A stretch of 31,531 bases of DNA from Gammaproteobacteria bacterium (GCA_030425615.1 JAUIAI010000001.1:1-31531), one strand, 5' to 3'. Positions 2,584 through 7,706 are shown, counted from the stretch's first letter. Program-made: numbers and translations. Notes: generated by a model not told the origin, from the sequence alone.

Positions 2584-2982
2584 CTAAAGCAGGCCCTTGA
2601 GCTGATCGAGCACGTATAGTCGCGGGGCGATGACGGCCTTGATCGCCTTCAGGCACGCAACGATGCCGAACACGGCGGGGAGCGCGGCGACCATTCCGCC
2701 CGTCGCCGCAGCAAACCACACGTCCGACTCGTCGAATTTGAGCGTCATATAGCCAGGATGCTTCTCACCGATTCGCCGATAGTTGCGGTACGCGGGCAGG
2801 AAGAAGAGCGGTACGATCGCGAAGCACAGGACGGCAACGATCAGGTTGCTCCAGAACCCCCATGCGAGGATCTCCTGCACGACGAGCGGCGCCTGCTCGG
2901 CGATGAACGCCGATCCCTGCTCCACGTACTGCATCACCGTGCCCACCGACTCGGTAAGCTTCTGTTCGAGATCTTCGTTCAT
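2584..2982 (-). CDS. Phage membrane protein (132 aa, two predicted TM segments)
   Basis: MNEDLEQKL...APLVVQEILAW...KAVIAPRLYVLDQL, with two hydrophobic stretches; ATGA-type overlap with the upstream gene. Confidence 0.8.
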   Translation of the reverse strand: MNEDLEQKLTESVGTVMQYVEQGSAFIAEQAPLVVQEILAWGFWSNLIVAVLCFAIVPLFFLPAYRNYRRIGEKHPGYMTLKFDESDVWFAAATGGMVAALPAVFGIVACLKAIKAVIAPRLYVLDQLKGLL

Positions 2983-3164
2983 TGCGAACCTCCGTTGACG
3001 TGAAAGATCCAGGCGCAGAGCAGCCCGAAGGCCATCACGCCGCCAATCGAGCAGCAGACGAGGAAGAACGCCGCCCGCAGCCCCGCGATCCGCTCGCGGT
3101 CCTCGTGCTGCATCCGCCGCTCGTGCGCGGCCAGCTCGTCGACTTGGCGCAGGTCGATGCTCAT
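2979..3164 (-). CDS. Small membrane protein (61 aa)
   Basis: MSIDLRQVDEL..., C-terminal hydrophobic helix, 4-bp overlaps at both ends. Confidence 0.7.
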   Translation of the reverse strand: MSIDLRQVDELAAHERRMQHEDRERIAGLRAAFFLVCCSIGGVMAFGLLCAWIFHVNGGSQ

Positions 3165-3349
3165 GACTTGACCTCGCTCGCATGGATCTCGCAAACCTCT
3201 GCGTCCTCGCACTCAGCCACGCAACTCCAGCAGAGGGAAACATCCGCGTCTTCTGCCGCCTTCTCGATGGCCTCTTCTTCCGTTTCGGCCTCGAACTCAC
3301 CGAGGTACTTTGATCCGACAACCTGCGCGTAGACTCGGAATCGCTTCAC
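3161..3349 (-). CDS. Small acidic hypothetical protein (62 aa, GTG start)
   Basis: VKRFRVYAQVVGSKYLGEFEAETEEEAIEKA...; GTGA overlap with the upstream stop. Confidence 0.75.
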   Translation of the reverse strand: MKRFRVYAQVVGSKYLGEFEAETEEEAIEKAAEDADVSLCWSCVAECEDAEVCEIHASEVKS

Positions 3350-3789
3350 GACCGATCCTCCGCCAGCCGCATCCCGCGCTCCTCGGCTTCGGCTTCCACG
3401 CGCGACTCGCACTCATCGCACAGCGCGTGGTCGGGGCGGGCGTACTGCTCCTCGCACGCGGGGCAGTTGAATTCCGAGTCCCAATCGCGGTTGAGCGAGT
3501 AGAGGATCGACTCCAGCACGTCGATCTCGTGGTCGTGCTTCTGCCGCAGCCGCTCGCGATCGTTCGCGTGCTCCGCGATGGCCCTGTCCGTCTGCCGTCG
3601 CGACTCCTCGAGCCGGGCGCGCAGCTCGTCGATCTGGCCGCGCAGCTCCGCCGTGGTCTGGTCGAACGACAGGAGCCGCGACCGGATGTCGTCGGCGCGG
3701 TCCGCGGTCATCGTCACCGGCTTGCGCGGGCCGCTCGGGGCGTCGCCGGGAAGGGCTACGTCGGCGGGGTGGGGCTGGGTGCTGGGCAT
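3346..3789 (-). CDS. Coiled-coil protein with C-terminal CxxC...CxxC zinc finger (147 aa)
   Basis: Heptad-like central region, then CPAC...CDEC; GAGGAG SD; first gene of the leftward operon. Confidence 0.8.
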   Translation of the reverse strand: MPSTQPHPADVALPGDAPSGPRKPVTMTADRADDIRSRLLSFDQTTAELRGQIDELRARLEESRRQTDRAIAEHANDRERLRQKHDHEIDVLESILYSLNRDWDSEFNCPACEEQYARPDHALCDECESRVEAEAEERGMRLAEDRS

Positions 3790-3828
3790 GTCGGGAATCT
3801 CCTCGGCGCTCCGTGCGCCATGCGGGTC

Positions 3829-3856
3829 ACTCTACAGGACTTCTCGGCGGGGTCAA
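3829..3856 (-). promoter_or_regulatory. Leftward sigma70-like early promoter (TTGACC-16-TAGAGT)
   Basis: Consensus-like -35 and -10 in the divergent intergenic gap. Confidence 0.55.
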
Positions 3857-3880
3857 CACTAAACTTTAAGATTTTCGCTG

Positions 3881-3910
3881 TTGACACAGATCGCAGGAAG
3901 CGGATAAGAT
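3881..3910 (+). promoter_or_regulatory. Rightward sigma70-like promoter (TTGACA-18-TAAGAT), probably leaderless
   Basis: Perfect -35 and near-consensus -10; the ATG lies 6 nt after the -10 with no SD. Confidence 0.65.
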
Positions 3911-3916
3911 CCCTGC

Positions 3917-4150
3917 ATGGACATCGACTCGTATCTCACGGCCAGGAACGAATCCGCTTCGCACTTTTCAAGGCGCGTCAGCCGCTTTAGGGACGTGTCT
4001 GCCGCCGCCATCATCAACATCCGGAACGGCACCGCGTCGCCCAGGATCGAGACGGCACAGGCGATCGTGCGGGCCTCCGAGGCTGAGCCTGCCCCTTGTG
4101 GGGGCACGATCTCCTACGAGGACCTTGCGCCTCGGGAGGAAGTCGCGTGA
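3917..4150 (+). CDS. Cro-like helix-turn-helix regulator (77 aa)
   Basis: HTH-like VSAAAIINIRNGTASPRIETAQAIVRAS and a GGTISYEDL tail typical of Cro/YdaS-like proteins; first gene after the divergent promoter. Confidence 0.75.
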   Translation: MDIDSYLTARNESASHFSRRVSRFRDVSAAAIINIRNGTASPRIETAQAIVRASEAEPAPCGGTISYEDLAPREEVA

Positions 4151-5870: not shown

Positions 5871-6070
5871 GATTCATGGAGTGCGCTGTCGGATAACGGC
5901 GGGGCGCACTCGTCACATAGCCTCGGTCCTGCCGGTAAGAATCGAGGCCACCGTGGGAACGCCACACAACCGGCAGCGCCAGAGTGAGACGGAAGAGGGC
6001 GCGTGGCAGCCAGGGCCTTCGTGGTGAAAGCAACTTCCGCAGGGATGCTCCGTTAGCCCCGGACTACCCA
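5871..6070 (+). ncRNA. Putative structured RNA with hairpin and pseudoknot(s)
   Basis: GAGTGCGC/GCGCACTC stem (5879-5911). GCCTCG/CGAGGC stem (5920-5948) whose loop CTGCCGGT pairs with ACCGGCAG (5969-5976). Confidence 0.35.
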
Positions 6071-6125
6071 CCCGGTTCTGCATGGTCAGGACTGGTAGGC
6101 CCGACTCTGCCCCGGAATGGCCGGG
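6071..6125 (+). repeat. Degenerate 5-nt-period NNNGG tract upstream of the RAMP gene
   Basis: 7 of 11 phased pentamers end in GG; the resulting triplets are GGT, GGT, GGA, GGT, GGA, GGC, GGA. Confidence 0.4.
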
Positions 6126-6183
6126 AACAGGAGAGGTCTACCCGGATGCGGTCAGAATAGAGAACAGGAGCAAGGGGAGAGAC

Positions 6184-6774
6184 ATGGAAGAAGTGAAGTT
6201 TCGGTTAGAGGGATTGGGTGCCCAATTGATGAAGAACGGCCAGATGGCCGATCGCTTCAACCCGTTCACGAAGAAGGTCGCGGAGTACGCGAAGCGGGCC
6301 TCGAAACTGACCGAGGATGAGGTCCTCGAGAAGTACAGATACGAATGGGAAGGTTCGCTTTACCGAAATCCGAAAACGGGCGCCGTTGGTTGGCCTGCGG
6401 AGAACGTGCTGCGTTGCCTCCAGGGAGGAGCGAAGCGGTTGAAGCTAGGGAGGAATATCGAGCGTGGCGTTGTCGAGTCGGAGGGATTTTTCGATCTCAC
6501 CTACGACGGCCCCAAGGATGTCGACGGGCTTTGGGAGGATGGCCGCTTTGTGGATGTCCGAAACGTGAACGCGAACCCTTCGGCTGCGAAGAAAAGCACC
6601 GTTCAGCGGTGTCGGCCGATCTTCCCTGAGTGGTCGCTAGGCGTGGCATTCATCGTCGACACACGCGAAATCAGCGTCGAAGACCTGGAGCAGTGTATGG
6701 AGTTGGCTGGGCTCTATATCGGGCTTTCCGACTATCGCCCGCGCTTTGGTCGCTTCCGCTCGGAGAAGCTGTGA
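6184..6774 (+). CDS. Stand-alone Cas7/RAMP-like protein (196 aa), candidate Vipr-type RNA-guided effector
   Basis: RAMP-like architecture by eye: N-terminal strand VKFRLEGLGAQLMKN, WPAENVLRCLQGGAK (like IPGSSLKGALR), RCRPIFPEWSLGVAFIVD, and C-terminal Gly loop AGLYIGLSDYRPRFGRF. GGGGAG SD before ATG 6184. No other cas genes nearby. Confidence 0.8.
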   Translation: MEEVKFRLEGLGAQLMKNGQMADRFNPFTKKVAEYAKRASKLTEDEVLEKYRYEWEGSLYRNPKTGAVGWPAENVLRCLQGGAKRLKLGRNIERGVVESEGFFDLTYDGPKDVDGLWEDGRFVDVRNVNANPSAAKKSTVQRCRPIFPEWSLGVAFIVDTREISVEDLEQCMELAGLYIGLSDYRPRFGRFRSEKL

Positions 6775-7217
6775 TGGAGCGGTTTCCCCTGGATTTCGAT
6801 GCCCTGGAGAAGGGGCAGACTATCCATACGCAGGAGATAGAGGCGATTTATGGGATTCCGAAGGACGACCGGCAATTCCGTTTCAAGCTCATGGCGTTGC
6901 GAACTCAGATCGAGCATGAGCGGAGCGATCTGCTTGTTCGGGAGACGCGCGATGCACTTCGCATCATGACTGATCGGGAGGCGGACGAGTACCTCGAAGG
7001 CCAGACCGACAAATCGGTGAGCAGACTCAAGAGGACAGCTGCTCGCACGCTTCGCGTTGATCGTTCGGACTTTACGGATGCCGAGCGGCGGCTCTCAGAG
7101 TCTCGGAGTCGGAAAGCGACGATGATCGCGATGTTTGCCGAGAAGGGGCGTCGTGAATCTCGGAAGCAATTGGCCGAGGCGAAGCAGGCATTCATCGCCG
7201 AGAGTGCGACGGACTAA
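6774..7217 (+). CDS. Alpha-helical partner protein of the RAMP gene (147 aa)
   Basis: TGATG coupling to the RAMP stop; MERFPLDFDALEKGQTI...LRIMTDREADEY...VDRSDFTDAERR; basic and helical. Confidence 0.8.
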   Translation: MERFPLDFDALEKGQTIHTQEIEAIYGIPKDDRQFRFKLMALRTQIEHERSDLLVRETRDALRIMTDREADEYLEGQTDKSVSRLKRTAARTLRVDRSDFTDAERRLSESRSRKATMIAMFAEKGRRESRKQLAEAKQAFIAESATD

Positions 7218-7220
7218 CCG

Positions 7221-7385
7221 ATCGGACTGGATAGGAGCGGAGAGGAGAGGACTGGACGGCAGAGGAAAGGATGGCAGGGGAGGGCAACGGAGCGGAGAGG
7301 AGAGGAATGGAGCGGATCGGACGGCATGTGATCGGACCGGCAGGGAACGGATGGGAGCGCAGCGGATAGGAGCGGAAAGCAATGG
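7221..7385 (+). repeat. Phased pentamer array (A-NN-GG)x33, i.e. GGA/NN alternation; candidate guide-RNA (vrRNA-like) locus
   Basis: 33 consecutive pentamers with no indel. Position 1 is A in 32/33, position 4 is G in 32/33, position 5 is G in 27/33 (else C), and positions 2-3 vary. Fills the gap from the TAA at 7215-7217 to the ATG at 7382. Confidence 0.92.
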
Positions 7386-7546
7386 ACTTTCACGAAAGAC
7401 GGATTCTGTACTACTCGAACTTGCTGGCGAAGCCGGCAGTAGACGAATGGGCCAGGGGGATCATGGGGGCGGCAGCGATGGACTACGCCAGGTCGAAAGT
7501 CGGGTGGCCGAGTCTCCGGGTGGTCCGTGACGACGAAGAGGAGTGA
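7382..7546 (+). CDS. Hypothetical protein (54 aa, MDFHERRILYYSNLL...LRVVRDDEEE)
   Basis: Translated by hand; in-frame TAGs within the array prevent upstream extension. Confidence 0.6.
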   Translation: MDFHERRILYYSNLLAKPAVDEWARGIMGAAAMDYARSKVGWPSLRVVRDDEEE

Positions 7547-7706
7547 CGCCATTGAGCGCCGCGCCGACCGCTTGATGCGCATGGTCGACGACTTCCTGGG
7601 CGAGCCCTCGACGAAGTGGCTGAACGATGCGCGGATCGAGATTCTCGGCGGCTTGCTCGAGCGGATCGAGCTGGCGATCGCCGAAGCGAAGGAGCGGACG
7701 TTTTGA
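7527..7706 (+). CDS. Hypothetical helical protein (59 aa, GTG start)
   Basis: Translated by hand: MTTKRSDAIERRADRLMRMVDDFLGE...; start is uncertain. Confidence 0.55.
   Translation: MTTKRSDAIERRADRLMRMVDDFLGEPSTKWLNDARIEILGGLLERIELAIAEAKERTF

Follow-up and report, generated by a model that had tools for sequence, protein, structure and literature searches.

The window, a 31,531-nt stretch of DNA, is a whole phage-like contig with HNH, RusA-like, terminase and tail genes that was binned into a 78%-complete MAG. A gene for a 196-amino-acid (aa) minimal Cas7-like RAMP protein (6184 to 6774, plus strand), here called vipr, was assigned by homology and by an AF2 model with an RRM core, a thumb and a G-loop. 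It overlaps by the sequence TGATG with a second gene of 147 aa (6774 to 7217, plus strand), which resembles the vap accessory genes discussed below. The gap between the TAA of this partner gene (7215 to 7217) and an ATG at position 7382 is occupied by a candidate vrRNA array of 34 contiguous GGANN pentamers (7219 to 7388, plus strand). The array starts one base past the partner stop codon and has the same orientation as all neighbouring genes. The ATG opens a 54-aa open reading frame (ORF); neither this ORF nor the other small downstream ORFs had a homologue in related loci.

All 34 pentamers share one phase without a break, as had been claimed in the original prediction, whose coordinates (7216 to 7385) denote the same array outside the GGANN register used here. 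The triplets comprise 25 GGA, all in that single phase, as well as six GCA and one each of CGA, TGA and GGC. Expressed by column, the scaffold reads G in 32, G in 28 and A in 33 of the 34 units (binomial P against the window composition, 2e-13, 9e-9 and 2e-23, respectively), and the one remaining third base is a pyrimidine (Y). Same-phase GG reached 17 per 100 nt within the array, compared to at most 8 elsewhere on either strand of the 31.5-kb window. The NN columns hold 13 different dinucleotides, and their previously listed order proved correct. Tandem Repeats Finder reported only weak rows of period 5, 10, 15 and 20, which is expected because the repeat payload varies. The array RNA was predicted to be unstructured and less folded than shuffled sequences (z of +1.24), as would be expected for a protein-bound single-stranded guide. 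Neither a structured 3′ tail nor a hammerhead ribozyme was evident in the 34 contiguous units, an Rfam search of the array gave no match at the gathering threshold or at an E value of up to 1, and blastn against phage records returned no match. With a period of only 5 nt, the array lacks the repeats of about 24 to 48 nt and the spacers of a CRISPR array, and no cas genes were found near it besides the lone RAMP gene.

The identity of this RAMP protein links the array to VIPR (Viral Interference Programmable Repeat), a CRISPR-related system for RNA-guided DNA silencing that was described in April 2026 (bioRxiv 10.64898/2026.04.26.720920). Its effector Vipr is a phage-borne minimal RAMP that polymerises on vrRNAs of 9 to 16 YNNGG repeats, with one protomer per repeat; the GGY is buried, and the NN dinucleotides pair with double-stranded DNA as NN-x, the skipped base usually falling on the codon wobble position (10.64898/2026.04.26.720920). 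The system is directed against rival phages and satellites and results in transcriptional silencing (10.64898/2026.04.26.720920). Type II vrRNAs each carry a conserved, structured tail at the 3′ end, and staggered arrays as well as arrays separated by ribozymes also occur. A profile built from 90 homologues of the window protein matched the PDB entry 36pp_D, named "SUSP1 Vipr protein", over its full length with an E value of 5.6e-57, and the single window sequence matched the same entry with an E value of 6.2e-17. The G-loop residues D183-Y184-R185 align with D177-W178-R179 of SUSP1 Vipr, and the thumb residue R144 aligns with R138. The AF2 model (pLDDT of 96.5) had Csm3/Cas7 subunits as its best Foldseek matches, and the protein also matches phrog_4652. 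Thirteen relatives of the window protein were present in an index of 5.8 billion proteins, and the family as a whole amounts to 2046 representative clusters by exhaustive HMMER searching. A search of the 171 other genomes in the family of the MAG yielded no Vipr homologue; the host assignment of the contig is therefore weak, and the rival targeted by the system is probably unsampled.

The partner gene is found directly 3′ of vipr in nine related loci, where it encodes 144 to 169 aa. Its AF2 model (pLDDT of 89.8) displays an N-terminal winged-helix-like unit followed by a long helical hairpin. Comparison with known domains gave only weak matches to winged helices of the ScpB, PadR and OmpR types, and a fold search with the model yielded no significant match. 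The predicted fold is compatible with a DNA-binding Vap protein without proving this role.

The genomic context was compared for ten homologues and for 15 loci in 13 genomes belonging to the same phylum. Phased 5-nt arrays flanked vipr on the same strand in every compared locus, and the layout of vipr, partner gene and flanking arrays was shared by all 11 distinct loci fetched through the homologues and by the 15 phylum loci. Three relatives with 60 to 63% identity (L123, L124 and L128) carry GGA arrays both upstream and downstream of the gene pair. The arrays of five relatives with 34 to 43% identity (L001, L125, L126, L131 and L133) are composed of GGC or GGT units, and the same was found for all 15 loci from genomes of the phylum. 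Within the window clade, 131 units from four loci were aligned by column. The scaffold is fixed (G 97%; G 87%, with C 11%; A 95%), and the payload is hypervariable, with near-uniform remaining columns that use all 16 possible dinucleotides. Any two arrays of the clade overlapped by only 14 to 38% in their best register, and L123 and L124 have unrelated arrays in spite of 73% identity between their Vipr proteins. The adenine in place of a pyrimidine, noted from the single array, is thus a real and clade-specific property, and the comparison among relatives that had been suggested as a check, hypervariable NN with a fixed GGA, came out positive. The idea of a scaffold that carries a variable payload, rather than of a slippage repeat, was borne out by the kept phase, the diverse dinucleotides and their lack of relation between relatives. 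This lack of relation is the opposite of the invariant NN content that had been named as the mark of an iteron-like site. Departures from GGA in the arrays of the window clade are almost always GCA.

Three features of VIPR are present at the locus, namely, a Vipr homologue, phased pentamers with hypervariable dinucleotides beside vipr and a location on a phage. The canonical GGY triplet, for which array callers search as GG[C/T]NN, is absent. We conclude, with a probability of roughly 85%, that the array encodes the guide RNAs (vrRNAs) of a GGA-type VIPR system in a phage. By analogy with the published system, the array would be co-transcribed with vipr and the vap-like gene (as judged from homology with SUSP1), and the transcript would presumably be processed. 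One Vipr protomer would bind each pentamer as the protein polymerises on the RNA, and every pair of protomers would bury the fixed G-G-A and present the two variable bases. The concatenated dinucleotides would then pair with double-stranded DNA reading NN-x-NN-x, and this pairing would silence genes of a rival, be it a phage, a satellite or a prophage.

The GGA type extends beyond this clade. An IMG/VR scan for ten phased GGA units recovered many plain microsatellites as well as phage loci with variable-NN GGA arrays, some of which consist of dozens of sub-arrays split by conserved punctuation. With a family HMM, more than 30 of the loci found by the GGANN pattern alone proved to encode a Vipr homologue next to their arrays. 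Very large GGA-type arrays of more than 20 guides of 8 to 15 units were observed in L017 (minus strand, about 2760 to 4140), L050 and L071. Each of these guides ends in GGAAA GGAAC followed by a conserved punctuation of about 9 nt, an 11-nt tandem repeat precedes the next gene, and a distant Vipr homologue is encoded upstream. As a separate observation, many "viral" contigs in IMG/VR (L003 to L010, L019, L025, L028, L036 and others) contain long (GGAAT)n tracts like human satellite III; these are probably contamination or mis-binned eukaryotic DNA.

To place the adenine in an evolutionary context, a tree of 38 Vipr proteins was labelled by array type. A-type and Y-type arrays were interleaved on this tree; parsimony gave eight changes between them, and at least four are forced by well-supported branches. 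The A-type clade that includes the window sequence has 100/100 support, and its sister is a Y-type locus. The cryo-EM structure of SUSP1 Vipr shows a third-base pocket that sterically excludes purines (bioRxiv 10.64898/2026.04.26.720927). Given an adenine at the third base and a solved pocket that admits only pyrimidines, the window clade must have re-shaped this pocket. Candidates for such a change, suggested by alignment, are N at the position of SUSP1 M72, S at the position of G176 and a 5-residue insertion in the thumb. The N and S residues occur in the window clade and in a second A-type clade, and the insertion is confined to the window clade. The N/S combination was found in 11 of 15 close relatives of the GGA type and in none of the five of the GGY type, a correlation that is phylogenetically clumped into about two clades and drawn from loci partly ascertained by the GGA pattern. 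Because of this clumping and ascertainment, we offer the correlation as a hypothesis only. The thumb insertion also means that the skip length need not be 1 in the window clade. The change from GGY to GGA was among the scaffold substitutions tested for SUSP1, and perturbation of GGY abolished silencing (bioRxiv 10.64898/2026.04.26.720920). The case for a functional GGA in the present array therefore rests on its conservation at the level of the clade.

A tentative explanation for the switch, which we consider possible but rather unlikely, is adaptive insulation. An A-specific Vipr might not be loadable by solo vrRNAs of the GGY type, and its own guides might be unusable by GGY-type rivals. If so, the GGY solo vrRNAs of satellites and rival phages could neither hijack nor redirect the A-specific Vipr, and the repeated switching between A and Y would be the signature of an arms race over guide loading. 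Under the same assumption, N for M72 together with S for G176 would represent a simple specificity code that provides naturally orthogonal VIPR scaffolds.

The 34 units probably represent about three guides of 11 to 12 units in a tail-less, head-to-tail array. The boundaries proposed here are tentative and were drawn from sequence resemblances. Guide 1 (units 0 to 10; 7219 to 7273, plus strand) would end in GCAGA GGAAA GGATG, which resembles the GCAGA GGAAT GGAAY at the end of both halves of the upstream array in L123. Guide 2 (units 11 to 22; 7274 to 7333, plus strand) would end with the irregular units GCATG TGATC, and a comparable pair of non-GG units is found at an in-phase junction in L128. 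Guide 3 (units 23 to 33; 7334 to 7388, plus strand) would run into the ATG at 7382, and its end, GGAAA GCAAT GGACT, resembles the GGAAY GGAAY GGNNN array ends of L123, L124 and L128. The proposal that irregular units mark the boundaries between guides is therefore plausible. The arrays of Y-type relatives end in GGCAA GGCAA or GGCAT GGCAT, and these array-end motifs suggest that, at the 3′ end, the arrays carry a short conserved handle instead of a long tail. Internal reuse of units had also been noted, and both repeats are present at the positions given; the duplication that they were taken to hint at was not supported. A 3-unit repeat arose in 14% of shuffles of the dinucleotide order (P = 0.14), so the internal repeats are no evidence of duplication.

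The leader before vipr (5871 to 6183, 310 nt) contains only a degenerate GG-phased tract, which may be a decayed upstream array (6065 to 6160, plus strand). About 8 of its 16 units keep the GG, the third base is mixed, and the resemblance is weak. The same slot in close relatives holds a clean GGA array of 14 to 19 units (L123, 3888 to 3972; L124, 3908 to 3977; L128, 93 to 187). The extent of the whole cassette, comprising vipr, the vap-like gene, the array and the 54-aa ORF, could be delimited to 6158 to 7562 by its absence from a near-identical phage. A 959-nt contig from an unrelated wastewater metagenome (run X4) is identical to positions 6000 to 6157 and 7563 to 7660 and skips the 1405 nt in between; this observation comes from one contig with a depth of about 7. 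In place of the cassette, the contig carries 40 other nucleotides that include three in-phase GGA units and may be the leftover of a solo or decayed guide. Since the cassette is present in one and absent from the other of two near-identical phages, it behaves as a module subject to gain and loss, which is in keeping with an accessory module for conflict. This absence recalls the vipr-vap deletions with leftover solo vrRNAs that are known from SUSP1-like phages.

The proposals that information resides in the NN columns and that it is read by a gapped, wobble-phased code have both already been published for VIPR. The gapped code put forward for this array coincides with the published 1-nt-skip rule, but matches with a 1-nt skip were not enriched in our searches. 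Neither in the 4.27-Mb assembly to which the contig belongs, searched with skips of 0 to 3 nt, nor in 1.2 Mb of fetched phage loci, searched with the guides of the window and with all 261 arrays, did the 1-nt skip perform better than skips of 0, 2 or 3 nt or than shuffled and reversed controls. Five exact patterns of 10 NNx units (unit starts 0, 7, 14, 23 and 11) were scanned against IMG/VR and gave a single match. Units 11 to 20 matched in 10 of 10 dinucleotides at positions 1291 to 1319 of L136, a 4.3-kb microvirus-like contig, within a 245-aa gene located between the major-capsid and replication genes. The match is in codon phase (peptide GGTADEIASR) and is the only in-phase viral match; its flanking units are unmatched, and it has no evident link to this phage or host. 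Searching JGI metagenomes with units 11 to 20 returned three records, two of them distinct, and one of the distinct matches lies on a eukaryote-like contig. Among 185,579 genomes, units 0 to 9 and 23 to 32 gave zero and one match, respectively, the latter out of codon phase in a Bacteroidota gene. We judged these three distinct exact matches to be about what chance would produce with 20 specified bases, and none extended past the seed. Two patterns allowing two to three mismatches were compared to 172 genomes of the family and yielded one match of 22/24, in an ankyrin-like chromosomal gene of a host, which we likewise attribute to chance. As the scans of the large collections covered exact patterns with a 1-nt skip, their outcome amounts to a lack of support for a target rather than to evidence against one.

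That none of these searches yielded a convincing target would also fit an array of VIPR origin that no longer guides, either because it is decaying or because it serves as a decoy or sponge that titrates Vipr. This reading could likewise draw on the 9 of 34 units that depart from GGA, on the decayed appearance of the upstream array of the same locus and on the loss of the whole cassette from the sister phage. Nevertheless, we consider it improbable. The third-base A is kept in 33 and the GG in 26 of the 34 units, far above the expectation for drift; the departures are mostly GCA and recur in relatives (C in 11% at column 2), which suggests a tolerated variant; and the ORFs of vipr and its partner are intact. 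A different type of sponge, one that sequesters a host post-transcriptional regulator of the CsrA/RsmA type or another GGA-binding protein, was an initial idea. CsrA binds GGA motifs, of which the array presents 25 within 170 nt, and the GGA-type locus L134 contains a small gene (1453 to 1668) with a weak match to CsrA (PF02599) about 1.3 kb upstream of vipr. However, homologous arrays in the same slot beside vipr use GGC or GGT, which are not bound by CsrA, and CsrA sites are not characterised by a strict 5-nt phase. Moreover, no GGA is presented by a hairpin, the RNA is less structured than shuffled sequences, and no match to CsrB, RsmY or RsmZ was obtained even at an E value of up to 1. The idea was dropped in view of the neighbouring Vipr homologue and the GGY arrays of relatives, and we regard it as very unlikely. 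Binding by a TRAP-like ring and a two-tetrad G-quadruplex were rejected on the same grounds.

The array might also act as double-stranded DNA, for example as iterons or as a partition or packaging site, and a regular short repeat in the early/replication region of a phage, near HNH and terminase genes, would suit such a function. This is highly improbable in our view given that iterons keep their sequence, whereas the variable positions of the array are unrelated between relatives; in addition, the 5-bp period corresponds to half a turn of the helix, the arrays are without exception on the strand of vipr, and a dedicated RNA-binding RAMP adjoins them. Equally slight is the chance that the purine-rich, unstructured tract, which is similar to Shine-Dalgarno sequences (GGAG/AGGA) and ends at an ATG, promotes translation of the 54-aa ORF at 7382, either as an enhancer or as a standby site for ribosomes. 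The homologous GGY-type arrays occupy the same slot without Shine-Dalgarno-like content, the ORF is without a homologue in any related locus, and a standby site needs no strict 5-nt phase over 170 nt. The least credible reading is that of a slippage microsatellite or a chance purine-rich tract. IMG/VR does contain many true GGANN microsatellites (GGAAT, GGACT and GGATT), but this reading is refuted by the 13 different dinucleotides among 33 units whose phase is never broken, by column P values from 9e-9 to 2e-23 and by the conserved position beside vipr in relatives.

The interpretation as a VIPR guide array places the locus in a known system, and its main value thus lies in a correct annotation, that is, as an RNA-guided weapon of a phage against rival mobile elements and not as a new class. 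Beyond this annotation, the array shows that GGY is not the locked part of every VIPR repeat, and within a single protein family the third-base pocket appears to have changed several times between accepting a pyrimidine and accepting adenine. Loci of the GGA type escape callers that rely on GG[C/T]NN, and a single pattern scan of IMG/VR already provided more than 30 of these loci with Vipr-linked arrays. Provided that A-type and Y-type Vipr proteins discriminate between their RNAs, they could be used as orthogonal scaffolds for multiplexed programmable repression, and such discrimination would offer phages a possible escape route from guide hijacking.

Among established systems, the Cas7 backbone of class 1 CRISPR effectors (Csm3; PDB 6xn3 and 6ifk) resembles the modelled Vipr in its RAMP fold (Foldseek E value of 2e-5, TM of about 0.5), in the binding of one subunit per RNA segment of fixed length and in base flipping induced by the thumb. 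Cas7 systems differ by a period of 6 rather than 5 nt, by the absence of pairing in 2-nt blocks and of guides made of a degenerate tandem repeat, and by a repeat handle, Cas6, Cas10/Cas3 and adaptation genes, none of which are present here. Of the solved members of VIPR, the type II system of Escherichia phage SUSP1 is the closest; it consists of Vipr, vap1 and vrRNAs (10.64898/2026.04.26.720920, 10.64898/2026.04.26.720927 and 10.64898/2026.10.15.759431). The two loci share a homologous Vipr, the order of vipr and a small accessory gene, flanking 5-nt arrays on the same strand, a fixed trinucleotide with hypervariable dinucleotides, a location on a phage and the lack of both cas1/2 and a CRISPR array. 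Unlike in SUSP1, the triplet is GGA (sometimes GCA) instead of GGY, the thumb is longer by five residues, N and S replace M72 and G176, and the 34 units, arranged head to tail, lack a recognisable pseudoknot tail of 40 nt. Such a long array of uninterrupted pentamers has a counterpart in the staggered tail-less vrRNA arrays of VIPR (fig. S18, 10.64898/2026.04.26.720920). The text of the VIPR preprints cited here does not mention GGA/NN among the natural motifs, and the logos and bar charts in fig. S17 of 10.64898/2026.04.26.720920 and fig. S10A of 10.64898/2026.10.21.760802 might depict it. The discovery paper permits "a related consensus" beside GGY (10.64898/2026.04.26.720920), and the non-canonical triplets GAC/NN, CAC/NN, WGT/NN and TGH/NN were reported in October 2026 (10.64898/2026.10.21.760802). 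The present array is like these non-canonical repeats in that a fixed triplet other than GGY stands beside a Vipr-like fold.
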